Origin: Lentzea waywayandensis
Lineage (GTDB): Bacteria; Actinomycetota; Actinomycetes; Mycobacteriales; Pseudonocardiaceae
Direction of reading: 5' to 3'
Assembly: GCF_900115955.1 (NCBI RefSeq)
Contig: NZ_FOYL01000019.1
Coordinates: forward strand, 1 to 64,000
DNA length: 64,000 bases
The position numbers and the translations under genes were made by a program. A model generated the notes under the pieces. It was not told the origin of the DNA. It made no database searches and was given only the letters and a program-made list of their open reading frames with translations. Positions 27,627 through 44,016 of the stretch are shown piece by piece (the first letter of the stretch is position 1; the number at the start of each line of letters is the position of its first letter).

Positions 27627-29063
27627 ATGCTCCCACCAGGTGGACGTATATCCGGTGCTCGACTGGCCCGACTGCTCGGTGAGTGGCGTCGTGGCGGGGC
27701 CCGGCAGTGTGTCGTCGATCTCGTCGCGGCGATGAAACTGCTGGTCGCGGACGGCCGGCTGCCGGTGGGGACCCGGCTGCCGTCCGAGCGCGAGCTCACC
27801 GAGGCGCTGCCCGTGAGCCGCACCACCATCACCGCCGCGCTGGACCAGCTGCGGGCCGAGGGGGTGGTGGAGTCGCGGCGCGGGGCAGGGTCGTGGATCA
27901 ACGGGCCCGTCGGTGCCGGGGGTGGCATCACGGGGGGCGACGACACGTTGATCGACCTGTCCCGCGCCGCGCCTCGCGCCTTGCCGTCCGTGCGGATCGC
28001 GATGGACGTCGCGCTGGGCCAGATGCCGGAGCACCTCGCGTCGCACGGGTACGACGAACGGGGGCTTCCGGTGCTGCGGCAACGGATCGCGGACCGGTAC
28101 ACGGCTCGCGGGCTGCCGACGTCGCCCGACCAGATCGTGGTGACGTCCGGGGCGCAGCACGCGTGGGCGTTGGTGCTGCGGCTCTTCGTCGGGCCCGGCG
28201 ACCGGGTGCTGGTCGAGCAGCCGAGCTATCCCAACGCGCTGGAGGCGGTGCGGGCGTCGTTCGGCATCCCGGTGCCCGTGCCGATGCTGAGTGATGGCTG
28301 GGATCTGGACGGGTTCGAGGCCGCGTTGCGTCAGGCGGGCCCCCGTTTGGCCTATCTGATCCCGGACTTCCAGAACCCGACCGGGCTGCGGATGTCGTCC
28401 GAGGCGCGGGAAACGCTGTCCGCGGTGCTGCGCAAGGCGCGCACTCCGTTGGTGGTCGACGAGACCTTGGTGGAGCTCGCGCTGGACTCGGCGGAGCCGC
28501 CGTTGCCGATGGCCGCGTTCGGCGGGGATTCGGTGGTGACACTGGGATCCGCGAGCAAGTCGCACTGGGGTGGACTGCGGATCGGGTGGATCAGGGCCTC
28601 CGCGGACATCGTGCACCGGCTGGTGTCGACGCGGGCGGCGATCGACCTGGGCACGCCGGTGTTCGAGCAGCTCGTGCTGGCCGCGTTGCTGGAGTCGCCG
28701 GAAACCGTGCTGGGGCAACGACGTGCGGAAGCCCTCGCGCAACGGGACGTGGCGGTCGCGGCGTTGCGGGAACATTGTCCACAGTGGAGTTTCGACGTGC
28801 CGGCCGGTGGGCTCGGGGTGTGGTGCACGCTCGACGGCCCGGTGAGCACGCGCATCGCGGTGGTGGCGCAGAACCACGGCCTGCGACTTGTCCCCGGCCC
28901 CCGGTTCGCGGTGCACGGCGGATGTGAGCAGATGCTCCGAGTGCCGTACACGCAGTCGCCCGAAGTGCTGCGCGAAGCGATCGGCCGTTTGGGTGTGGTG
29001 GCTGCATCCGTTGTGAGTACAGGGTTTCCTGCGGATGCCGACCTGTCGGTACCGGTCGCGTGA
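27627..29063 (+). CDS. MocR/GntR-family transcriptional regulator with PLP-dependent aminotransferase-like domain
   Basis: N-terminal GntR wHTH (LPSERELTEALPVSRTTITAALDQLRAEGVVESRRGAGSWI) plus a ~350-aa fold-type-I aminotransferase-like domain (SASKSHWGGLRIGW). Confidence 0.85.
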   Translation: MLPPGGRISGARLARLLGEWRRGGARQCVVDLVAAMKLLVADGRLPVGTRLPSERELTEALPVSRTTITAALDQLRAEGVVESRRGAGSWINGPVGAGGGITGGDDTLIDLSRAAPRALPSVRIAMDVALGQMPEHLASHGYDERGLPVLRQRIADRYTARGLPTSPDQIVVTSGAQHAWALVLRLFVGPGDRVLVEQPSYPNALEAVRASFGIPVPVPMLSDGWDLDGFEAALRQAGPRLAYLIPDFQNPTGLRMSSEARETLSAVLRKARTPLVVDETLVELALDSAEPPLPMAAFGGDSVVTLGSASKSHWGGLRIGWIRASADIVHRLVSTRAAIDLGTPVFEQLVLAALLESPETVLGQRRAEALAQRDVAVAALREHCPQWSFDVPAGGLGVWCTLDGPVSTRIAVVAQNHGLRLVPGPRFAVHGGCEQMLRVPYTQSPEVLREAIGRLGVVAASVVSTGFPADADLSVPVA

Positions 29064-29360: not shown

Positions 29361-30152
29361 TCAGTCGGGTGACGTGCTGGGCAGGCCCGGAATACTGCCG
29401 GGCTCAGTGCCGTCGCGACGCTCCTCGACCGACCACGTGGCGGGCGGGAAGAGCGAGTTGTGCGACGTCAGAACGGCGAGCACGCCACGCGTGCCGCCGG
29501 AGTTGTCGGTGTGGCCGGACGACGCGGAGGCCGTGGCGACCACAGGTGCCTGCTGGGGAGCGGGCAGCGGAGCGTCCGGTCCGGGAGTCGACCAGGTGAG
29601 GTCGCTCACCGGAGTGGGCTCGGTCTTCACAGGAGCGGACACCGGAAGGTCGGGCAGAAGAGGCACGGACTGCTTGACCGCCGCGACAGGTGCCGCGGGC
29701 GGAGGAGGTGGCGGCGGGAGTTCGGCCACGAGCTTCGCGGCGATCTTGGCGGCGCGGACCTGAGCCTTCGCCGCGAGGACCTCGGGCGGCGCCTCGTTCG
29801 AGACGGAGCCGGAGCGGCTGTTGCCCTGCGAGCCGCCGGTGAAGTCGAGGACCGGACCCTCGTCCTCTTCCTCCTGGGGCTCTTCTTCCGCGGGCCTCGT
29901 CGCGACGGGCGGCGGCACGATCCTGGCCGGCTGGTGCTTCTCGATCACCGACGCGGTGAAGGCCTCGGCCCAGCCGGCGGGATCCTCGGTCAGCTTCGGG
30001 GCCTCGGCGGCGGTGTCGGTGGTGATCTCGACGGCCGGGGGTTCCTCGGGGCTGGCGGACGCGGTCGTCCCGCTCAGCAACCAGGCGGCGGCGGTCAGCC
30101 CGCCGAGCGCAGCGGTCCGCAGCAGCAGTGCACCAGCTCCACCACTCGCCAC
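29361..30152 (-). CDS. secreted Pro/Ala-rich hypothetical protein
   Basis: N-terminal signal-like region, low-complexity P/A/E-rich sequence. Confidence 0.45.
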   Translation of the reverse strand: MASGGAGALLLRTAALGGLTAAAWLLSGTTASASPEEPPAVEITTDTAAEAPKLTEDPAGWAEAFTASVIEKHQPARIVPPPVATRPAEEEPQEEEDEGPVLDFTGGSQGNSRSGSVSNEAPPEVLAAKAQVRAAKIAAKLVAELPPPPPPPAAPVAAVKQSVPLLPDLPVSAPVKTEPTPVSDLTWSTPGPDAPLPAPQQAPVVATASASSGHTDNSGGTRGVLAVLTSHNSLFPPATWSVEERRDGTEPGSIPGLPSTSPD

Positions 30153-30332
30153 AGGATCACCACCCGTCCACCATTTCAGGTCACCCTCAACGCACAGCGC
30201 GCCGTCGGAGGTCGACGTAGAGCTATGTCTAGCACCGGTGAGTGACTTTGCGAACCAACTCGGCGCGAAACACCCGGAAGGGCGGTCTCGTGCGGCTGTC
30301 CGTGTTGCCCTGATCAGGCATGAACACCGTCA

Positions 30333-31247
30333 GTGTCGTCATCGGATCGAGTGACTTTGCGCCTCGGTCCCCTGTGGACCGTGTCGCGGCGGGGGATGGT
30401 GTCCGATGTGGACGCGCCAAAGCAGGTCAGCAGCCTCTCTGAGCTGGTCGATCACGCCTCCAGTGCGCTCGGCCCGGTGGTCGTGCACGATCCGGCGGGG
30501 CCAAACGAGTGCTTGCTCCGTTCGGGGGAACTGATCGTCCCGCCGGCGGACGCACCCACTGTGCGCAAGCGCTTGCGGGGCGTCTACTCCCACGAGGAGA
30601 TCGCCTCGGGTGTCATCCGCATGCACCTGAAAGCGTCCGAACGAGCGCGCGTCGTCGCCATCGCGCTTGAAGTGGGTGCAACCCCGAACCACGTCCACCT
30701 GGCCTGCCCGATCATGATCGGCACCTCCCGCCCGGTGGTGGGCGAGCGCCTCCCTGACCTGCTGGGCGAGGGCACGGTCGCGTTGCTCGACACCCCGCTC
30801 GACGCCCGGCACGGCGCGTTGGTCGCCGGTGTTCTCCGCCACCACGGCGCCTTGGTGCGCCCGTTCCCCGTCCTGGGTGCCTCGGGCTTCGGCGACGACC
30901 TGACCCTGGCCGCGGCGTTGAAGGCCACTCGCGACCTGCCGGTGGTCCTGGTCGCGTCCGGCACCTACACGTTCAACGACGAGTGCCCGCCCGTGCTGTC
31001 GGGCTGCGGCCGCAACGTCGTGGCCGCGGCGGGCAACGGTGGGTCCGCGCGTCCCTGGTGGCCCGCCGCCCTGCCCGAAGTCACAGCGGTGGGTGCAGCG
31101 GAAGCCTTCTCGGGGCACGGGCCGTGGGTGGACGTGGTCGTGTCCGGGGCCGACGTGCCCGCCACGGTCGGCTCCTCGCAGCTGCTGTGCACCGGCACCT
31201 CGTTCGCGGCCGCTCTTCACGCCGCGACCCTGGTCCCGGTGCCGTAG
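30333..31247 (+). CDS. subtilisin-like (S8) serine peptidase homolog, cytoplasmic (no signal peptide)
   Basis: Catalytic-triad contexts present (VALLDTPLD, RHGALVAG, GTSFAAALHAA) and oxyanion Asn (VVAAAGNGG). 3' end overlaps the CHAT gene convergently by 31 bp. Confidence 0.6.
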   Translation: MSSSDRVTLRLGPLWTVSRRGMVSDVDAPKQVSSLSELVDHASSALGPVVVHDPAGPNECLLRSGELIVPPADAPTVRKRLRGVYSHEEIASGVIRMHLKASERARVVAIALEVGATPNHVHLACPIMIGTSRPVVGERLPDLLGEGTVALLDTPLDARHGALVAGVLRHHGALVRPFPVLGASGFGDDLTLAAALKATRDLPVVLVASGTYTFNDECPPVLSGCGRNVVAAAGNGGSARPWWPAALPEVTAVGAAEAFSGHGPWVDVVVSGADVPATVGSSQLLCTGTSFAAALHAATLVPVP

Positions 31248-33262
31248 CAGCTGAACCCGAGGTGCGCGACGGCTCGCGCTGCCTCCGCCGGGTGGCCGAT
31301 CAGGCGGTGAACCTCGGCCATGGCCTCGCTGACCTGCGCGTCCGGCACGGGGAGGGTGGTCGCGACGACCGCTCTGGTGCCGGCGTCGAGGAACGCGCGG
31401 GCCAGGCCTGACTCGCAGGCGGACAGGACGACGATCTCGGGCGGGTTCTCGATCCTGGCGATGTCGTAGCCGTAGAGCGGGCCGTCCCCGAGTTCGAGGT
31501 AGGAGAACAGCGGGTTGTCCGGGTTGACGTGCCCGTGCGCCGCGATGTGCGCGATCCCGGCACCTTCGAGCGCGTGCAGAGTTGACTCCACAGTGGACCT
31601 GCTGATCGTTCCGCCGTGCTCTTCCTGGAGAGCGGGGACCTCGTTGCCGGCCAGGTGCGGCCCGGTGACCCACGTTCGGTGGCCGCCGCGGCTGGCCGGT
31701 CGCCACTGCCGCAGCGACGGGATGACGTGGACTCGGCGGCCGAGTGCAGCCCACGGCATCTCGTGGAGCACGCCGTCCGGGATCACGATGACCTCCTCTG
31801 CTTCCGGCAGGAGATCCGTGGTGACGGCGCGTCCGGCCCGCAGGGCGAGCCGGGCGGTGCGGACGAGTTCGGCGGGGTCGGGAACCACGCTCAGGTGAGC
31901 ACGCCCGTTGATCAGCGTGACCGCTCTCGTCTGTCCTTCGTGGACGATGAAGCTGATCAACGGCAGGTTTGCCGGGGCCGTCGCGCTCGGCTTCGCGCGT
32001 GACCTGGAAGCCAGGGTCAGCCTCCGGACGTCCCGCTCCAGCGCCTCCAACGGCAGCCCGAACGCCCTCGCCCGCCGCAGGTTCGTGAGTGCCCGTGCGA
32101 GCTCAGGCTCGTTGGTAGGCAAGGAAACCGAAGCGCGATGCTGCTCTGACCAGTGCAACACCTCGCGAGCGGTCCTGGCCAGTCCGAGCGCGTGCCCGGT
32201 CAGCTCACGGCGAGGCCAATCGCCGTGGTGCTCATCGAGCAACTTGAGCCCCGCACGACACGCAGCCAACGCACCTCGCCTGTTCGAGCGTCGTGCCTGC
32301 GCGAGCCACCCGAGCGCCCGCGTCTGCACGGGCCCGCGAAACCGATGCGCCGCAACGGCATCAAGCTTCCCCGCAGCCAGCATGAACTCGACATCCGCAC
32401 CACCTTGCCGAAGCGCGGGACCCGGATCTCCGTCGCGCAACGCACACCGCGCGTTCAGCACCGCCAGCTCGGGAACGTGCCGATCGCACCGGCGCAACAA
32501 CTCCATCGCAGGTGCCAGCACCCGCCGCGCCTCCGCCGTGAGCCCGGCCGCGAGCAACGCCTCGGCCCTGTCGACGAGCGCCTCGGGCCGGCTGGCCGAG
32601 TCGAGACCGGCCTTCGCCGCCTCCTCGTACCTGCGCAGCGCGAGCGGCAGATCGCCGGCGAGCATCGCCACGAATCCCCTGTTGTGCAAACACATCGCCG
32701 CCCTCCCCGGCTCGCCCATCGCCAGCAACGACGTCTGCGCGGCACTGAAATCGGCCTCGGCCGACACCAGCTTGGACGCGTTGCACCGGGCGATCCCACG
32801 CCCGACCAGCGCGTTGGCCAGCCACCGCTCGTCGCCGTGTCTGCGCAACTCCCTGATGACCGCGGTGAGCTCGGCGATCGCCAGCCGCGGCTCGGCCACC
32901 TGACAGAGGTGCAGCCCGCGCAGGCACCTCGCCCTCGCCAACTCCCGGCCGCGCAGATGGGGCGTGGCGAGGTCGAGGTGCTGAAGGCTCTGCCTGCGCC
33001 GTCCCCGATCCAGGTCGATCCACGCCAGCGTGAGGTGGAACCGCGCCTCGCCGGTCAGCCTCAGTCCGCGCCGGGCGAACCGCGCGGCGACGTCGAGGTG
33101 GCCGAGCTCGACGTGGGCGACGCTCAGGTCGTGCAGGGCATCGGCGCGCTGTGTCTTCGTGCCGCGGACCTCGGTCGTCGCGATGGTGGCCTGCGGGTCG
33201 GCGCTGGCGCTCACGCGACGAACCAGCCCGTGGTGAGGCCCAGTTCGGGCACGGTCACGCAC
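31217..33262 (-). CDS. TPR-repeat + CHAT (caspase-like) domain protein
   Basis: N-terminal/central TPR-like helical repeats. C-terminal CHAT domain with His (IAHIAAHGHVNPDNPLFSYLEL) and Cys (IVVLSACESGL) dyad contexts. Precise start uncertain. Confidence 0.8.
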   Translation of the reverse strand: MRDRARTGPHHGLVRRVSASADPQATIATTEVRGTKTQRADALHDLSVAHVELGHLDVAARFARRGLRLTGEARFHLTLAWIDLDRGRRRQSLQHLDLATPHLRGRELARARCLRGLHLCQVAEPRLAIAELTAVIRELRRHGDERWLANALVGRGIARCNASKLVSAEADFSAAQTSLLAMGEPGRAAMCLHNRGFVAMLAGDLPLALRRYEEAAKAGLDSASRPEALVDRAEALLAAGLTAEARRVLAPAMELLRRCDRHVPELAVLNARCALRDGDPGPALRQGGADVEFMLAAGKLDAVAAHRFRGPVQTRALGWLAQARRSNRRGALAACRAGLKLLDEHHGDWPRRELTGHALGLARTAREVLHWSEQHRASVSLPTNEPELARALTNLRRARAFGLPLEALERDVRRLTLASRSRAKPSATAPANLPLISFIVHEGQTRAVTLINGRAHLSVVPDPAELVRTARLALRAGRAVTTDLLPEAEEVIVIPDGVLHEMPWAALGRRVHVIPSLRQWRPASRGGHRTWVTGPHLAGNEVPALQEEHGGTISRSTVESTLHALEGAGIAHIAAHGHVNPDNPLFSYLELGDGPLYGYDIARIENPPEIVVLSACESGLARAFLDAGTRAVVATTLPVPDAQVSEAMAEVHRLIGHPAEAARAVAHLGFSCYGTGTRVAA

Positions 33263-33580
33263 AGCGGTCCAGGGGTGATGTGGGCGCGGAACCAGCCTTC
33301 GGCGTCCGGGCGGAGGGCTTGGACGGACTGCGGCGAGCGGACCTCGACGGAGACGTCCTCGTGGTCCAGGACGCCGGTCAGGTGCAGGCCTGCCGGGTCG
33401 GAGTCCAGTTGGAGGTGCAGGCGGCCGGAGCCGGCCTCGAACACCAGCAGGTGTGAGGGGCCGCGGACAGGTTCCTCGACGGCCTGCATGGGTTCGAGGC
33501 CGGTCGGGTGCGGGGTGAGGGCGGCCGGTGGGGGGTCCGAGTGGAAGAGGCCGGCGATCTCGTCGAGCAGTGAGTCCCTC
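33211..33580 (-). CDS. small hypothetical protein (123 aa) between ECF sigma and TPR-CHAT genes; candidate anti-sigma/substrate
   Basis: Strong SD GGGAGG 6 nt upstream of the ATG at 33578-33580. An 18-codon mini-ORF with GGAGGA SD ends by ATGA overlap at this start. No TM or zinc-anti-sigma motif. Confidence 0.45.
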
Positions 33581-33631
33581 ATCGCGAACCTCCCGAGGTG
33601 AGCGGGCTGTGGATACCGAGGAGGTCGTTCG

Positions 33632-34162
33632 TCATCGCAGGTCCTCCAGCTTCCGCCGCAGCTCAGCGAGGCAACGGCTGCGCGTGGAGCCAACGCTCCC
33701 CACCTTCATCCCCAGGGCGTCGGCAACCTGTGCATAACTCAGTTCGGGGCTGTGGGCAGCGATCCGCAGGAGCCGCTGGCACCGTTCGTTCAAGGTCGTC
33801 AGCGCGGACCACAGCCGGCGCTGCCGATCGTTGGTGATCGCGACCTCGTCGGGTGCGGGAAGGGCCGACATCGGCTCCCACAGGTCGTAGGACACCTCGC
33901 GGCCGCGAGTGCGCAGGACCGTGATCGACTGGCGGGTGGCGGTACGGACCAGCCACGTGCCGACGCGTTCCGGTTCTCGCAGGCGGGTGAGGTGTTCGGC
34001 CAGGCAGAGCCAGGTGCACTGGTAGACGTCGGCGGCGTCGGCGTAGCTCAGGCGGAACGATCTGGGCACCGACCAGACCAGGCGTGAGTAGCGGTCGACG
34101 AGGGCGTCCCAGCCGCAGAGGCCGGAACGCCAAGCCACGAGAACCTCAGTGTTCGAGTCCAT
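33632..34162 (-). CDS. ECF-type RNA polymerase sigma-70 factor
   Basis: Region 2 (DALVDRYSRLVWSVPRSF..DAADVYQCTWLCL) and region 4 HTH (LSYAQVADALGMKVGSVGSTRSRCLAELRRKL). Confidence 0.9.
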   Translation of the reverse strand: MDSNTEVLVAWRSGLCGWDALVDRYSRLVWSVPRSFRLSYADAADVYQCTWLCLAEHLTRLREPERVGTWLVRTATRQSITVLRTRGREVSYDLWEPMSALPAPDEVAITNDRQRRLWSALTTLNERCQRLLRIAAHSPELSYAQVADALGMKVGSVGSTRSRCLAELRRKLEDLR

Positions 34163-34215
34163 GCCATTTGGAGTCGAACCCCGGGCCTAAGGCTCCCGGG
34201 CTCACCCGAAAGTGG

Positions 34216-34259
34216 GTTGTCCACAGTTGTGGAGAAACTCATCCACAGCTGTGGACAAC
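34216..34259. promoter_or_regulatory. perfect 11-bp inverted repeat GTTGTCCACAG...CTGTGGACAAC (22-bp spacer) containing the palindrome CCACAGCTGTGG, upstream of the ECF sigma gene
   Basis: Seen directly at 34216-34226 and 34249-34259, in the promoter region of the sigma operon. Confidence 0.45.
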
Positions 34260-35543: not shown

Positions 35544-36686
35544 ATGAAGGTCGTCGTGCAGGTTCGCTTGCTGCCTTGTGCCGCGCAGGCGGCAGCGCTG
35601 GTTGCGACTCTGCATGCGTGCAACGCTGCCGCAGACAATGCATCGAAGATGGCGTTCGAGCGCGGCGTGAGTTCTCGCAATGACCTGCAGAAGCTGGTCT
35701 ACGGGGACATGCGCGCAGCTGGGCTCGGAGCTCAAGCCGCGGTGCGGACGGTGAAGAAAGTAGTTGACGCCTACGCCAGCGTGCATGCGCGAATCCGAAT
35801 CGGCAGCCTGGCCGGTCCAGGTAAGGCCAAGGCTGAAAGCAAGGCGATCAGGTTTCGGGAGGATGCGGCGCAGCCATTCGACGACCGCATGCTTTCGTGG
35901 CGGTATGACGACCAGACGGTGTCGATCTGGACTGTCGCGGGTCGCTTGAAGGGTGTTCGGTTCGCTGGGCATCCTGCGCAGCTCGCGATGCTCGTCGCGC
36001 ACCGGCAAGGTGAGTCTGACCTGGTGTTTCGCGGCGGCAAATGGCTGCTGATCGCCACCTGTGAAGTGCCCGAACCCGAGGTTGTGCCGCCAACCGATTG
36101 GATCGGCGTGGACCGCGGAATCATCAACTTGGCCACCACGTCGGACGGCGAGAATTTTCAGGGCCGCCGATTGCGGCGTTACCGGCGATGGCACGCGCGA
36201 AAGCGCGCCGAGCTGCAGGCCAGGCGCACCAGATCGGCGACCCGTCGCCTGCGTCGGCGGGTTCGGCGGGAGCATCGCCATGTGACTCAGGTGAACCATG
36301 AGATCGCCAAGAAGTTGGTGGCTGTCGCGCAACGCACCGGTCGCGGTATCGCTCTGGAGGATCTGAGCGGAATTCGCGACCGGGTACGGCCTCGCCGCGA
36401 TCAGCGAGCCACCCACTCTTCCTGGCCTTTCCGGCAGCTCGGTGCGTTCATCGAATACAAGGCGAAGCGCGCGGGTGTCCAGGTGATCACTGTAGATGCC
36501 CGCCACACCTCGCAGATGTGTCCGCGTTGCGGTCACACGGCCCGCAACAACAGGCTCAATCGAGACTGTTTCCGCTGTCGTCAGTGCGGCCTCGCTGGGC
36601 CGTCTGATCACGTCGCCGGGATCAACGTGCGCGACCGCGCACGCTCGGTGTGGGTACTTGTCAACGTGCCCGAACCTGCCGCTTGA
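35544..36686 (+). CDS. tnpB: TnpB-like RNA-guided endonuclease (IS200/IS605-family OrfB, IS1341-type, no tnpA adjacent)
   Basis: RuvC-like segments plus C-terminal zinc finger CPRCGHTARNNRLNRDCFRCRQCG. HTH-like OrfB_IS605 N-domain. Confidence 0.85.
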   Translation: MKVVVQVRLLPCAAQAAALVATLHACNAAADNASKMAFERGVSSRNDLQKLVYGDMRAAGLGAQAAVRTVKKVVDAYASVHARIRIGSLAGPGKAKAESKAIRFREDAAQPFDDRMLSWRYDDQTVSIWTVAGRLKGVRFAGHPAQLAMLVAHRQGESDLVFRGGKWLLIATCEVPEPEVVPPTDWIGVDRGIINLATTSDGENFQGRRLRRYRRWHARKRAELQARRTRSATRRLRRRVRREHRHVTQVNHEIAKKLVAVAQRTGRGIALEDLSGIRDRVRPRRDQRATHSSWPFRQLGAFIEYKAKRAGVQVITVDARHTSQMCPRCGHTARNNRLNRDCFRCRQCGLAGPSDHVAGINVRDRARSVWVLVNVPEPAA

Positions 36687-39807: not shown

Positions 39808-42038
39808 AGCACGTGTTCAACGACCTCGCCCTCGGCGTCCGGCTGGCCGTCGGGGGCAGCCGGAAGTCGTGGGGGAGGCTCGCACTTCAGGGCGTCGGCA
39901 TCGGTCTGTGTGTGGCGATGCTGTTGCTCGCCGCCGCGTTGCCGAACGCGTTGGACGCACGGGACGACCGGGGTGATGCGCGCAGTGAGATGACCGAGGG
40001 CGACGGGCCGGCGCCGGTGCTGGTCGAAGAGATGTACGTCCACTTCCGCTCGCACGACATCCCCGGCACGTATGTGAACGTGCGCGCGCAGAACGCTCCG
40101 GTGCCGCCGGGCCTCGAACGGTTGCCGCAGGACGGCGAGGTCGTCGTGTCGCCCGCGCTCGCGCAACTGCTCGCGTCGCCGGAAGGTGAGCTGCTGCGTC
40201 CCCGGTTCCCGCAGAAGGTGATCGGCACGATCGGCGCGGCGGGCCTGATCGGACCTCACGACCTGAAGTTCTACGCCGGTGACAGCAAGATCGCGGAGGA
40301 CGCCGGCACCAAGGTGTACGGCTACGGGCGTGCGTACCAGCGCATGGGGCTCGACCCGGTGCTGTGGATGCTCAGCCTCGTCGGCATCGTCGTGCTGCTG
40401 TTCCCCGTGCTGGTGTTCGTCAGCGTCGCCACCAGGCTCGCCGCCGCCCAGCGCGACCGCAGGCTCGCGGCGTTGCGGCTGGTCGGCGCGGCGGCGGGCC
40501 GGGTGCGGCTGATCGCGTCCGGCGAGACGCTGGTCGGCGCGCTGACCGGGCTCGTGTTCGGCATCGGGATCTTCCTCGCGGTGCGGCCGCTGGCCGACGA
40601 CGTTCCCGTTCCCGAGCTCGCGTTCTACCCCGGCGACCTGCTGCCCACCCCGTCTCTCACGGCGGTGGTGCTCGTGGCCGTGCCGGTGCTCGCGGTTCTC
40701 ACGTCGTTGTTCGCCATGCGCCGCACGATCATCGAACCGCTCGGCGTGGTCCGGCACCAGAAGCCGGTCCGGCGCAGGCTGTGGTGGCGTCTGGTGCCCG
40801 CGCTCGGCGGAATCGCCCTGCTGGCCAGCCAGTTCGGCGACAGCGGCGAGAAGGGCACGACGTTCCAGGTCGTCGTCATCGCCGGCGTGGTGCTGCTGAT
40901 GCTGGGCATCCCGGTGCTGCTGCCGTGGCTGGTGGAGCGGGTCGTGAACTGGATGCGCGGTGCCACCCCGGCCTTGCAGCTGGCGGTGCGCCGGTTGCAG
41001 CTCGACGCGGGTACGGCGGCGCGGGTCGTCGGTGGCGTGGCCGTGGTGCTCGCCGGCACGGTCACGTTGCAGGTCATCCTCGCGAGCGTCGAGAAGGACG
41101 TCGTCTCGGAGGAGAAACGGGACGCGACCCACAACTTCATCGCCCTGACACCCAAAGAGGACATCGACGCCGCCGGACTGCGGAAGGCTGTGGAGGCCGC
41201 CGAGGGCGTGCGGGCCGTGCACGTGCTCGACCGCACCTACGTGACCCAGCCGGACGACCGCACCACGTCCGTCTCCGTCGGCACCTGCGCGGCGTTGAAG
41301 GCACAGGCGGACGTCACGGACTGCGTGGACGGCAAGGCCTACCTGGTGCGGTTCGCGCGGGACATGTCCGAGGTCAGGGCGGGCGACGCGGTGAAGACGC
41401 AGGGCGAGAGCGCCTGGACCCTGCCCGCGCTGCGGGAGGTCCCCGGCACCAGTCCCGGCATCTACCTCACCCCTGCCGCGGCCAAGGGCCTCGACCTCAC
41501 CGACAGCCGGCCCCAGTTGCAGGCCGAGCTCGACCTCGCGGTGCCGGACGCCGCCGAGCACATGCGCAACTCCGTCGCCGCGTACAGCTGGCGGGTCCAC
41601 GCGTACTTCGTCGGCCAGGACGACTCGGCCGAGGTCGAGTTGATCTTCGCCTCGATCCGCAGGGCGTTGCTCGCGGGCGCGGTGCTGACGTTGCTGCTGG
41701 CCGGAGCGTCGTTGCTGGTAATGGCGCTGGAACAGGTCCGGGAACGCCGCCGTCCTCTCGCCGTGCTGGCGGCGACCGGAGTACCGCGCGGCACGCTCGC
41801 CAGGTCGTTGCTGTGGCAGAACGGCGTGCCGCTGGTGCTGTCCACGGTCATCGCGGTCGGCACCGGCGTCGGGCTCGGCGTGATGGTCACGCGGGTGTTC
41901 GGCGCCGAGGTCGCCTACGACTGGCCGGGCATCGCCGCACTCACCGGCGCCTCGGTGGCGCTGGTGCTCGCGGTCACTGCTCTGACGTTGCCCTCGCTGA
42001 GAAAGGCGACCGGAGCACTGGGGTTGCAGAGCGAGTAG
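39804..42038 (+). CDS. FtsX-like ABC transporter permease with duplicated extracytoplasmic/permease modules
   Basis: 744 aa, two FtsX-type 4-TM blocks. Overlaps the ATPase stop. Confidence 0.8.
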   Translation: MKHVFNDLALGVRLAVGGSRKSWGRLALQGVGIGLCVAMLLLAAALPNALDARDDRGDARSEMTEGDGPAPVLVEEMYVHFRSHDIPGTYVNVRAQNAPVPPGLERLPQDGEVVVSPALAQLLASPEGELLRPRFPQKVIGTIGAAGLIGPHDLKFYAGDSKIAEDAGTKVYGYGRAYQRMGLDPVLWMLSLVGIVVLLFPVLVFVSVATRLAAAQRDRRLAALRLVGAAAGRVRLIASGETLVGALTGLVFGIGIFLAVRPLADDVPVPELAFYPGDLLPTPSLTAVVLVAVPVLAVLTSLFAMRRTIIEPLGVVRHQKPVRRRLWWRLVPALGGIALLASQFGDSGEKGTTFQVVVIAGVVLLMLGIPVLLPWLVERVVNWMRGATPALQLAVRRLQLDAGTAARVVGGVAVVLAGTVTLQVILASVEKDVVSEEKRDATHNFIALTPKEDIDAAGLRKAVEAAEGVRAVHVLDRTYVTQPDDRTTSVSVGTCAALKAQADVTDCVDGKAYLVRFARDMSEVRAGDAVKTQGESAWTLPALREVPGTSPGIYLTPAAAKGLDLTDSRPQLQAELDLAVPDAAEHMRNSVAAYSWRVHAYFVGQDDSAEVELIFASIRRALLAGAVLTLLLAGASLLVMALEQVRERRRPLAVLAATGVPRGTLARSLLWQNGVPLVLSTVIAVGTGVGLGVMVTRVFGAEVAYDWPGIAALTGASVALVLAVTALTLPSLRKATGALGLQSE

Positions 42039-44016
42039 TCGACTCGTGCTCTGCCAGGCGGTCCTGCACCAGTCCGTGCCGGAACTGGTAGCAGGCTCCC
42101 GCCCGGCAGAGCACGCCGAGCTTGCGTGAATCCTCCAGGAACACCATCAGCTCCCAGGGCAGCTTTCCGCGCAGTGCCAGCCAGATCCGGGCGACGGTGA
42201 ACCACCACCAGCGCAGGTGCAGCACGGCCAGTGCGAACCCGAGCATCAGCCCGGACGCGAGCCCCAGCCCGACCATGCCGGTCTGGCCGGGGCCGAACAC
42301 CAGCGCCGCCGCCGAACCGAACACCACGGCCAGCACGAGAGACCCAGTCCACACCGCGATCCGGTCGCGCGACATCGTCCACTGAGGACTGGAAGCCTGC
42401 GACAGCTCGGCCGCGCTCGACAACGCGAACCGCAGCGCGATCGCCACGGCGAGCCCCAGGCCGACGACGAGTCCGGCGGAAAGTCCGTACAGTGCCCCGA
42501 AAACGAGTCCGGCGGCAAGTCCCAGCACGCCGGGCACGAGCAGCAGACTGCGCCAGATTCCCAAGCGCGGCTTGGCTTTGCGCTCGTGTGACGCGGTCAG
42601 CGCGGCCGCGCCGACACCGATGCCCGCCACCAGGCCGGTGATCGGGGCGAGCGACGGCGTAATCGAGTACGCCATCAGCCAGCCGACGCCGAACCCGCCG
42701 ATCGCGCCCAGCACCAGCGCGCCGAGCACCGCGAGCCACGTGCTGCCGACCGAGCGGCGCAGCTCCCACCAGGCCAGTTCGCGGATGCCGCGCTCACGCA
42801 TCTCGTGAGCCAGGAACTCGAGCCACTTGCGGGCCCTGTCGCGCGGCCAGACCTGCGTGGCCCTGGCGTGGTGCGCGAACGCCCTGTTGCCGAACGCCCG
42901 CGACACCAGTTCGTCGCAGAGGTGGTCGGAGATCGCCCGCGCGTCCGGGAAACGGCCGCGGTCGAGCAGTTCGGTCGGCTCGGCCTCGCTGTCCGCGTAG
43001 ACGATGCTGGCGAGCCACATCGTGAGCGGCGTGGACAACGCGTCCGCGAGCCTGCCGTCCGGTTCCTCGCGCAGCTGGATGAACACCGGCTCCCAGCGCG
43101 CCGCGCCCCAGCTGTCGGCGCTCGCCCGCAGATAGGCGGCGACCTCGTCCAGGTCCAGCGGGGCCAGTTCGACGACGTCCGCGCCGGGCAGCGGACCGGC
43201 GAGGTGGACGGCCTGCGCGAACTCGGCCGTGCGGCAGGTCAGCACCAGCGGCCGGTTCGCGCCGAACGCCTTCGAGATCCGCGCGAGAGCGTCCGCGCGC
43301 TGGTGGGCGGGGATGTCGTCCAGGCCGTCGAGCACGGGCAGCACCAGGTGCTGCTCGACCAGCAGATCACCGGCGTAGCTGCCGTACAGCTCGGTGTTGC
43401 GCAACGCCGGATGGTCCTCGTAGAGCCTGCGCGTGAGCCACGTGCGGACGTCCTCGACCGCCGGGTTCCACGTCGACAGCGGCAGCAGCACCGGCACCAT
43501 GCCGCCGTCGTAGCGGTCCAGCAGGCCGCACGTCAGCAGCATCGCGACCGTCGACTTGCCGGTGCCGGCCTCGCCGATGATCACCATCCGGCGGTTGATC
43601 TGCCGTTCGAACGCGCCCACCACGGCGTCGCTGCGTCCGGGCGGCGCGTCCGGCTCGTCGCTCACGTCCAGTTCGGGGGCGATCCAGTGCAGGTCGAGCA
43701 CGTCCGGGTCGGTGAGGCCGCGCGAACGCACCTCCTCGTTCCACTGCGACTGAAGGCCGACGGCGAGCGCGCGGCACGCGGCGTCGAGGTGCTCGTCAGT
43801 GCTGAGCGCGGCGTTGTGCCTGCGCCGGACCCACGGGTCGAGCAAAGCCAGAAAGCCCAGGAACGCCAGCGCGAGCACGATCAGCCACAGGTGCGGGTGG
43901 ATGCCGAGGTCGGTCACGATCAGCCCGGCCGCGGTGAGCAACGCGGTCAGCACGCACCCGGCCAGCAGCGCTCGCTGACGGAATCTGGACATGCGAGGCA
44001 TCATGACGCACCGCAT
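41974..44016 (-). CDS. NACHT-family STAND NTPase embedded in the membrane (2 N-terminal and ~5-6 C-terminal TM helices)
   Basis: Walker A VIIGEAGTGKSTVAMLL, Walker B LVLPVLDGLDDI, NACHT-like helical region. Hydrophobic N-terminus (LLAGCVLTALLTAAGLIV...LWLIVLALAFLGFLAL) and a C-terminal cluster of glycine-rich TM helices. Confidence 0.75.
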   Translation of the reverse strand: MRCVMMPRMSRFRQRALLAGCVLTALLTAAGLIVTDLGIHPHLWLIVLALAFLGFLALLDPWVRRRHNAALSTDEHLDAACRALAVGLQSQWNEEVRSRGLTDPDVLDLHWIAPELDVSDEPDAPPGRSDAVVGAFERQINRRMVIIGEAGTGKSTVAMLLTCGLLDRYDGGMVPVLLPLSTWNPAVEDVRTWLTRRLYEDHPALRNTELYGSYAGDLLVEQHLVLPVLDGLDDIPAHQRADALARISKAFGANRPLVLTCRTAEFAQAVHLAGPLPGADVVELAPLDLDEVAAYLRASADSWGAARWEPVFIQLREEPDGRLADALSTPLTMWLASIVYADSEAEPTELLDRGRFPDARAISDHLCDELVSRAFGNRAFAHHARATQVWPRDRARKWLEFLAHEMRERGIRELAWWELRRSVGSTWLAVLGALVLGAIGGFGVGWLMAYSITPSLAPITGLVAGIGVGAAALTASHERKAKPRLGIWRSLLLVPGVLGLAAGLVFGALYGLSAGLVVGLGLAVAIALRFALSSAAELSQASSPQWTMSRDRIAVWTGSLVLAVVFGSAAALVFGPGQTGMVGLGLASGLMLGFALAVLHLRWWWFTVARIWLALRGKLPWELMVFLEDSRKLGVLCRAGACYQFRHGLVQDRLAEHESTTRSATPVLRSPFSARATSEQ

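Follow-up and report, generated by a model that had tools for sequence, protein, structure and literature searches.

Within a 64,000-nucleotide window from the actinobacterium Lentzea waywayandensis (contig NZ_FOYL01000019.1, positions 1 to 64,000 of the forward strand; hereafter the window), we identified a locus that appears to be a lineage-modified Lentzea version of a conserved actinobacterial four-gene module, the published genomic context of ECF54, a group of sigma factors with extracytoplasmic function (ECF). The module encodes an ECF sigma factor, a small partner protein, a caspase-like protease with tetratricopeptide repeats (TPR) and a CHAT domain, and a subtilase of the S8 family. 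We propose that these four genes form a protease-gated sigma switch, in which the small protein would be both the inhibitor of the sigma factor and the substrate of the proteases, a reading that we consider possible, if somewhat short of probable.

Results

Four coupled or overlapping genes make up the locus

The locus comprises the following features, with positions given in window coordinates.

33632-34162, minus strand: ECF-type sigma factor gene; 176 aa, sigma2 and sigma4 domains; ECF54-type by gene context
33579-33635, minus strand: mini-open reading frame (mini-ORF) MTNDLLGIHSPLTSGGSR; 18 codons, joining the sigma stop to the small-gene start through two ATGA overlaps
33211-33582, minus strand: small partner protein gene; 123 aa, candidate soluble anti-sigma factor and protease substrate
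31217-33214, minus strand: TPR-CHAT caspase-like protease gene; 665 aa, repeats at residues 7-402, CHAT domain at 419-658
30333-31247, plus strand: subtilase-like gene with a cytoplasmic product; 304 aa, an N-terminal domain of ~135 aa followed by a compact S8 domain
34168-34196, minus strand: putative ECF-type promoter of the sigma operon; -35 GGAGCC at 34191-34196, -10-like ACTCCAA at 34168-34174
34216-34259, no strand assigned: inverted repeat, probable protein operator; arms at 34216-34233 and 34242-34259
30153-30332, plus strand: conserved non-coding block 5' of the S8 gene; contains YATGTCTAGCAC, CCACYCGGAAGGGCGG and TGCGGCTGTCC

The product of the first gene matches Sigma70_r2 (Pfam, E-value 4e-12) together with r4, as well as the sigma70-ECF model TIGR02937 (NCBIfam, E-value 2.5e-22), in agreement with the initial annotation of this DNA. 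That annotation had also described a 123-aa protein of no known family with a strong Shine-Dalgarno (SD) sequence, and this description stands (SD GGGAGG at 33589-33594, 6 nt before the ATG at 33582-33580), but the gene spans 33211-33582 rather than 33211-33580. Likewise, the frame 31217-33262 on the minus strand encodes a CHAT domain (Pfam, E-value 3e-20, 73 bits against a cut-off of 24) plus TPR, in the N-TPR/C-CHAT order that had been claimed. Its start, however, is most likely the GTG at 33214 and not position 33262, because the L. waywayandensis protein annotated with 665 aa has 100% identity to the product translated from there.

As the GC content of the region is ~70%, and spurious ORFs are abundant, we compared GC content at third codon positions (GC3), which is 0.85-0.89 for all four module ORFs (0.89 for the small gene and 0.88 for the S8 gene) and at most 0.66 for the competing overlapping frame 30339-31754 on the minus strand. 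The sigma stop overlaps the mini-ORF ATG and the mini-ORF stop overlaps the small-gene ATG, each as ATGA, and the TGA of the small gene overlaps the GTG of the CHAT frame as GTGA in the DNA; the sigma, small and CHAT genes are translationally coupled through these overlaps. The 3' ends of the CHAT and S8 genes overlap tail to tail by 31 nt. Judged by eye, none of the four module proteins has an apparent membrane segment or signal peptide.

The module is conserved across Actinomycetota in several gene orders

A scan of the CHAT alignment against one genome per species yielded 79 loci, and the module is found in these across many actinobacterial families. Outside Lentzea the small protein is invisible to BLAST and was found with a hidden Markov model (HMM) iterated on six-frame ORFs. 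This small-family HMM gave 77 ORF hits, one per locus save a frameshifted copy in locus L069, and every one of them lies immediately downstream of the sigma factor gene, which is the usual place of an anti-sigma gene. The CHAT gene is present in all surveyed loci, these having been selected by CHAT, and S8 homologues are present in 67. A search from the small-protein side, which avoids the bias of CHAT-based selection, found the sigma factor gene directly upstream with an 8-nt overlap in 4/4 distant homologues, and the TPR-CHAT and S8 genes within 5 kb in three of the four; the remaining locus consists of a truncated sigma factor gene and the small gene only. The small gene is an obligate partner of the sigma factor, and the co-location of the four genes is far beyond chance.

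At least four gene orders keep the four genes together, in Pseudonocardiales, Micromonosporales, Streptosporangiales, Streptomyces, Propionibacteriales, Micrococcales and Acidothermales (arrowheads give the direction of transcription):

Order A, sig > small > CHAT > < S8: Lentzea, Saccharothrix, Umezawaea, Actinosynnema
Order B, S8 > sig > small > CHAT >: other Pseudonocardiaceae, some Streptosporangiales
Order C, < small < sig < S8, CHAT >: Micromonospora, Acrocarpospora, Microbispora, a Streptomyces, others
Order D, sig > small > < CHAT ... S8 >: metagenome contigs L083 and L084

The initial annotation had named conservation of the neighbourhood in related genomes as a check on its grouping, and across these 79 loci the grouping is borne out. 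When ORFs from the non-Lentzea loci were clustered, the widely shared families were the four module genes plus the synteny genes of Pseudonocardiaceae. Identity of the sigma factor to the window protein is 77-91% across Lentzea and 34-54% at other actinobacterial loci; the CHAT protein reaches 80-87% across Lentzea. For the S8 protein the Lentzea identities are 79-89%, compared with 65-76% for the small protein, so that constraint on the S8 gene is no weaker than on the other module genes. It had escaped gene callers in two Lentzea records (L001 and L002), where tblastn shows it to be present at 80-83% identity. The subtilase is an integral fourth component and not an incidental convergent neighbour; the initial annotation's "triad" thus has to be replaced by a tetrad.

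Two Lentzea genomes share the order aminotransferase, sigma, small, CHAT ... MocR, and every Lentzea genome, like several further genera of Pseudonocardiaceae, has the module at one and the same chromosomal position, between the aminotransferase and the MocR regulator. This shared position argues for vertical inheritance rather than a variable defence island. Lentzea-like loci (68-90% protein identity, same synteny) are also filed under 'Streptomyces sp. ID05-26A' and 'Nocardia sp. NRRL S-836', and Pseudonocardiaceae-like loci under 'Rhodococcus rhodnii NRRL B-16535' and a 'Candidatus Melainabacteria' metagenome-assembled genome (MAG); the records concerned (L006, L020/L037, L062 and L045) are probably mislabelled or misbinned.

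The small partner belongs to a large, unannotated protein family

The 123-aa protein has no match in Pfam, NCBIfam or PADLOC, and a profile of its family returned 0 matches at E-values up to 10 against all PDB sequences. Its close homologues (74 matches, ~60-89% identity) come almost only from Lentzea. The family as a whole is large and unannotated: it comprises at least 3290 clusters, those listed being ~147-168 aa long and without a Pfam domain, and among the listed named clusters all but one are called 'hypothetical protein'. A typical member of ~150 aa begins with two N-terminal helices, with the motif DDxLLxxLxxAL..D.VP..F...GK.A.AW..IDAEL, and continues through a variable linker into a beta domain. 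For the window protein, the AlphaFold model (predicted local distance difference test, pLDDT, 77) has an amphipathic N-terminal helix at residues 4-14, a low-confidence stretch at 21-41 and a seven-strand, immunoglobulin-like beta-sandwich at 45-121 whose fold is predicted confidently; four of eight family members scanned have sub-threshold matches to CarboxypepD_reg. Of 198 family sequences, 195 have Arg40, which closes the low-confidence linker and is possibly the site of cleavage.

Both predicted proteases retain their catalytic residues

The initial annotation had left the presence of the CHAT catalytic residues to careful alignment. Both are there: His560 (31535-31537) and Cys600 (31415-31417) are invariant in a set of 17 and in a set of 69 homologues. 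In the AlphaFold model of the protein (pLDDT 88.7, predicted template modelling score 0.77), residues 7-402 form helical repeats and residues 419-658 an alpha/beta domain, and in TPR-CHAT architecture and fold the model is closest to Csx29, the protease of the type III-E CRISPR complex Craspase. The TPR part also resembles the peptide-binding RRNPP receptors Rap, NprR, PlcR and AimR. At the sequence level the relationship to Csx29 appears generic. The NCBIfam Csx29 model NF041237 scores 17.2 bits against a cut-off of 300, in the catalytic region only, which rules out membership of the Csx29 family, and a PDB profile search with the CHAT protein found 8d9h_E at only an E-value of 0.008. We likewise rejected identity with BovA of the Borvo system: the PADLOC match (E-value 1.7e-7) aligns residues 576-661 with positions 513-602 of a 720-position profile, that is, the generic catalytic region and not the full length.

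Two irregularities in database CHAT records were observed. In Lentzea guizhouensis (L001, 8357-10472) gene calling splits TPR-CHAT into two ORFs (278 aa with TPR, 449 aa with CHAT) that overlap by 71 nt, which points to a pseudogene or else to a frameshift in the assembly. Many CHAT entries in databases (e.g. P0106, 743 aa) extend ~30-85 residues further at the C-terminus, apparently reading into the S8 gene in antisense; no conservation is seen in these extensions, and they look like artefacts of annotation.

For the convergent gene, the initial annotation had proposed an S8-like protein overlapping the CHAT gene tail to tail at 30333-31247. Taken alone, the window protein matches Peptidase_S8 below threshold (Pfam, E-value 0.0024, 17.7 bits against a cut-off of 21.8). 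A profile of its family, by comparison, aligns with subtilases in the PDB, including intracellular subtilisins, at an E-value of 3.5e-36 with the catalytic motifs in register, which supports the proposal. D153, H160, N235 and S290 are invariant in the family and give the catalytic triad and oxyanion Asn in subtilase order. All 20 family members scanned match Peptidase_S8; the window copy is the weakest of them, owing to a deletion in the Lentzea clade that removed ~35 residues from between the catalytic Asp and His. The N-terminal domain of ~135 aa is conserved, with the motifs PxWT, HDxxGxxECLxRxGE and PNHVH, and has no Pfam match at E-values up to 5 and no meaningful PDB match, so that it is not a recognisable propeptide of the I9 or fervidolysin type. 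Long relatives of the S8 protein, considered as informative domain fusions, were either secreted subtilases of a generic kind or fusions with a KAP-NTPase.

Upstream of the S8 gene, a block of ~180 bp (30153-30332) is more conserved than the flanking genes. YATGTCTAGCAC, CCACYCGGAAGGGCGG and TGCGGCTGTCC are invariant within it, and the block is recognisable in Saccharothrix, Actinosynnema, Umezawaea and two MAGs of different gene order. We rejected a known or structured RNA here, as there is no Rfam match and no convincing covariation (RNAalifold, -16 kcal, covariation term +0.17). The 13-mer GAGTGACTTTGCG occurs twice, 109 bp apart, once in this block (30240-30252) and once in the first S8 codons (30349-30361). 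Beyond the block, and divergent from the S8 gene, 29361-30152 on the minus strand encodes a 263-aa protein with a signal-peptide-like N-terminus and Pro/Ala/Glu-rich low complexity, which is 48-84% conserved in Lentzea and partly conserved in Saccharothrix.

The sigma operon has a candidate promoter, a probable operator and a variable spacer

The 100 bp from the aminotransferase stop to the sigma ATG are nearly invariant in the Lentzea alignment. Across Lentzea a variable spacer of ~16 nt lies between two conserved blocks, GGAGCC and (A/C)xTCxxA, and the pair ends 5-10 nt before the sigma ATG; in the window the -10-like block lies 5 nt before this ATG. The same two-block pattern with a variable spacer recurs in Saccharothrix, Umezawaea, Actinosynnema and related MAG loci. 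We read the pair as a putative ECF-type -35/-10 promoter that would give a near-leaderless transcript.

Just past the aminotransferase stop and ~20 bp upstream of the putative -35 is the inverted repeat at 34216-34259 that had been noted initially as a perfect 11-bp repeat. It is real, is conserved across Lentzea and has arms of 18 nt that are 94% complementary. It can be described as two palindromes, TCCACA-NN-TGTGGA, with centres 22 bp apart, whose outer 9-mers are TTGTCCACA. The central NN of the palindromes varies freely among Lentzea, and the arms show no compensating changes; the repeat is for this reason probably a protein operator and not an RNA hairpin. A hairpin or terminator was rejected on the same lack of compensation and on a scan that found no intrinsic terminator. 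Exact copies of TTGTCCACA, which we take to match the Streptomyces-type DnaA-box consensus, occur at 28775, 34217, 34250 and 34777 (four in 64 kb; ~0.15 expected from base composition by our own estimate), three of them clustered inside 600 bp around the sigma promoter and the 3' end of the aminotransferase gene. In other Lentzea, GTCCACA-related motifs also recur in the spacers between the sigma and small genes, in some cases in the form of 18-bp tandem repeats.

An 18-codon leader mini-ORF with its own SD had been proposed to end exactly at the small-gene start. Its stop does overlap the small-gene ATG, but it is not a conserved leader peptide: it is absent from most Lentzea, in which the sigma stop and the small-gene start share a single ATGA, it varies in length in others, and the coding signal is weak. 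In six Lentzea species the sigma-small spacer measures 59-374 bp and contains an ATGA-to-ATGA ORF of 20-125 codons with a GC3 of 0.67-0.82. These spacer ORFs open with a second copy of the family helix motif, M-S-x-DDLLxxLAxxLDRxDPxP, and close with ...VVHSLLxxGGSR. In L005, L015, L018, L019, L021 and L001 the helix motif is repeated without the beta-sandwich, and the longest spacer is that of L. guizhouensis (L001). Such an ORF could be a decaying partial duplication or a helix-only peptide. The 18 codons of the window (MTNDLL...IHSPLTSGGSR) are a deletion remnant of the variable spacer ORF, and it is the coupling, by overlaps and SD, that is conserved rather than a leader peptide.

The locus matches the published context of ECF54

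The association of these genes is already known. ECF54 has been described as an ECF sigma factor group with subtilase, CHAT and 'carboxypeptidase' proteins nearby, without a recognised anti-sigma factor and 'possibly regulated by proteolysis'; the review concerned, which refers to Huang 2015 and Casas-Pastor 2021, describes no experiments (PMC8999054). The 2021 classification places ECF54 among the groups without a putative anti-sigma factor, mentions a 4Fe-4S protein in the neighbourhood, and cautions that genes conserved nearby can be either regulators or targets (PMC7826278). We found no experimental study of such a module in the literature on CHAT proteins with ECF or other sigma factors and subtilases.

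The locus agrees with this description in that its sigma factor is actinobacterial and consists of sigma2 and sigma4 only, that subtilase and CHAT genes are its neighbours (S8 in 67 loci), and that no canonical anti-sigma factor is encoded nearby. The 'carboxypeptidase' protein is evidently the small partner, whose sandwich resembles CarboxypepD_reg and gives sub-threshold matches to it. Proteolytic control has been proposed for ECF54 as it is here. The Lentzea clade differs in having moved the subtilase to a convergent position and in having shortened both the subtilase and the small protein, and the ECF54 literature does not regard the small protein at position +1 as a candidate anti-sigma factor.

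Comparison with other protease-controlled sigma factors

The initial annotation likened the locus to the type III-E Craspase system, and as an analogy of gene classes and architecture this has partial support; homology has none. In that system (Cas7-11/gRAMP, Csx29, Csx30 and CASP-sigma; PMC10028731) an ECF-like sigma factor is likewise accompanied by a smaller protein, and cleavage of the inhibitor by the protease frees the sigma factor: Strecker et al. reported that Csx30 binds and inhibits the sigma factor and that Csx29 cleavage lifts the inhibition. The Lentzea locus, in contrast, is without Cas7-11, a CRISPR array or RNA-guided activation; its CHAT protein is only 14-15% identical to Csx29, and no relation of its small protein to Csx30 was detected in sequence or fold. 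The actinobacterial set also has a second protease, S8, and is chromosomal and vertically inherited.

Three further systems invite comparison. CalpL-CalpT-CalpS resembles the Lentzea locus in encoding a protease and an anti-sigma-like substrate, both of them soluble, alongside an ECF-like sigma factor, with proteolytic release in the cytoplasm; its protease is a Lon-SAVED protein activated by cyclic oligoadenylate and linked to type III CRISPR, whereas Lentzea has TPR-CHAT plus S8 and no CRISPR link. In DdvA-DdvS of Myxococcus xanthus, control of an ECF sigma factor falls to a protein bearing a TPR-CHAT module, the proposed trigger being proteolysis of the CHAT type; this protein, DdvA, is a single transmembrane anti-sigma factor with a zinc-binding N-terminal anti-sigma domain and a periplasmic CHAT domain whose active site is incomplete (PMC11506125). 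The Lentzea CHAT protein, unlike DdvA, is cytoplasmic, is separate from the candidate anti-sigma factor and has a complete His/Cys dyad. Finally, the likeness to RseA/DegS/RseP would lie in two proteases acting in turn on an anti-sigma factor to free an ECF sigma factor, although the classical system is membrane-embedded, with site-1 and site-2 proteases, while the Lentzea protease families are unrelated to these and no membrane segments are apparent by eye.

Neighbouring genes

The module is neighboured by genes for a P-type ATPase, a TetR protein, a Clp_N protein, the MocR-type regulator, the aminotransferase and an IS605-type TnpB, and further by DUF445, zf-CGNR, ABC/FtsX, NACHT NTPase and PCMT genes; no anti-sigma domain was matched in any module protein or neighbour. 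As stated in the initial annotation, the locus is free of CRISPR components: no array was found, and within ~10 kb of the module there are no cas genes, the sole Cas-like match being the TnpB. This TnpB-like gene (35544-36686, plus strand; OrfB_IS605 plus a Cas12f1-like TNB domain) lies in a ~1.37-kb stretch of lower GC content between the aminotransferase and DUF445 genes. As these two genes are only ~30 bp apart in other Lentzea, the TnpB-like gene is a strain-specific insertion of the IS605 family and not a CRISPR gene. The NACHT-domain NTPase (41974-44016, minus strand, 680 aa) is encoded ~8 kb from the module, and L. fradiae has a counterpart in the same relative place.

A possible protease-gated sigma switch and its alternatives

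In the switch that we propose, the small protein would be a new kind of soluble anti-sigma factor that holds the sigma factor inactive via its N-terminal amphipathic helix. The TPR domain of the CHAT protease would read a cytoplasmic signal, and the activated protease would cut the disordered linker of the small protein, possibly at the invariant Arg before the beta-sandwich. The subtilase would complete the degradation or itself belong to a protease cascade. The freed sigma factor would then transcribe a regulon that includes its own operon, from the GGAGCC-N16-xxTCxxA promoter. A stronger claim would see in the small +1 protein, with its helix, Arg-containing linker and Ig-like sandwich, the founding member of a new class of soluble anti-sigma factors cut by a stand-alone TPR-CHAT protease, with a subtilase second, and thus a CRISPR-independent Craspase-like switch inherited vertically in the genomes of many actinobacteria; this claim is doubtful at present.

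Several points weigh against this proposal. That the small protein is a cleavable anti-sigma factor is plausible, while binding, cleavage and its site, the order of the proteases, signal and autoregulation are all steps that we infer. The initial annotation expected relatives of the small protein among Csx30 and anti-sigma families, and none emerged: no similarity of sequence or fold to Csx30, CalpT or any known or solved anti-sigma domain was detected. The Lentzea protein also lacks the second N-terminal helix that other family members carry, and the invariant Arg could be structural instead of a cleavage site. The Lentzea subtilase may be impaired by its loss of ~35 residues. Searches for the sigma promoter motif elsewhere in the window returned 0 and 4 matches, not above chance, and none of these is 5' of the S8 or CHAT gene. 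The locus very likely belongs to ECF54, an assignment made by gene context only, and the 4Fe-4S neighbour noted for that group is not among the families widely shared at non-Lentzea loci (minor families there being without a Pfam scan). Lastly, neighbourhood data cannot separate the regulators of a sigma factor from its targets.

Among the alternatives, the suggestion published for ECF54 is that the proteases, CHAT and/or subtilase, degrade the sigma factor itself and so hold its level down, which would make the small protein an adaptor, stabiliser or decoy. Intact active sites in both proteases and the lack of a canonical anti-sigma domain are what one would see in that case. We nevertheless hold it to be unlikely: it leaves the universal, translationally coupled +1 small gene unexplained, the 176-aa sigma factor with its two domains has no obvious extension or degron, and both of the CRISPR-linked protease/ECF-like sigma systems that have been studied cut the inhibitor and not the sigma factor.

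To about the same low degree of probability, the proteases and the small protein might instead be the output of the sigma factor, its regulon, forming an induced proteolytic effector, for example in development, stress clean-up or programmed cell death. The warning of the ECF classification authors that conserved neighbours may be targets applies here; moreover, the orientation of the CHAT and subtilase genes to the sigma gene changes, three gene orders out of the four have separate transcription units, and the S8 gene has its own strongly conserved upstream block. Yet the putative sigma promoter motif was not found 5' of either protease gene in the window, the Lentzea CHAT gene is translationally coupled to the sigma and small genes in one operon, and tight retention of four genes across gene orders is more typical of interacting partners.

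A CHAT-based anti-phage or abortive-infection system, Borvo-like or in the manner of a CRISPR-less Craspase, in which the sigma factor drives a defence response, appears quite improbable. The fixed chromosomal position in Lentzea and other Pseudonocardiaceae genera points to vertical inheritance, and no other defence genes are adjacent. The small-family member P0303 had no match in a phage collection, and its sole match in a plasmid collection, an 11.85-Mb Nonomuraea record, looks like a chromosome filed as a plasmid. What speaks for defence is the resemblance of the fold to Csx29, the BovA match, which is confined to the generic catalytic region, the NACHT NTPase gene ~8 kb away, and DdvA/DdvS, in which a CHAT-type anti-sigma factor presides over a defence island in Myxococcus. 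That the juxtaposition is due to chance and the small ORF is not a real gene, as the many spurious ORFs of 70% GC DNA and the missing family annotation might suggest, is already refuted by conservation and has next to no probability, given the GC3 of 0.89, the 74 close homologues and at least 3290 distant clusters, the fixed place after the sigma gene in 77 loci and the confident AlphaFold2 fold of the beta domain.

Significance for ECF54 and for Actinomycetota

ECF54 has been listed since 2015 as a group without a known regulator (PMC8999054). Our analysis defines the small-protein family and its features and corrects the view of the mini-ORF, and it supplies the ECF54 question with targets: a universal candidate sigma partner, a candidate cleavage Arg, two proteases with intact sites and a candidate autoregulated promoter. 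Should the mechanism fail, the locus would be a well-conserved but ordinary member of a catalogued group. If the protease-gated sigma switch is true, Actinomycetota, the phylum that is the chief producer of antibiotics, would have caspase-like control of transcription, known so far from CRISPR type III-E, as an ordinary signalling device of the chromosome.

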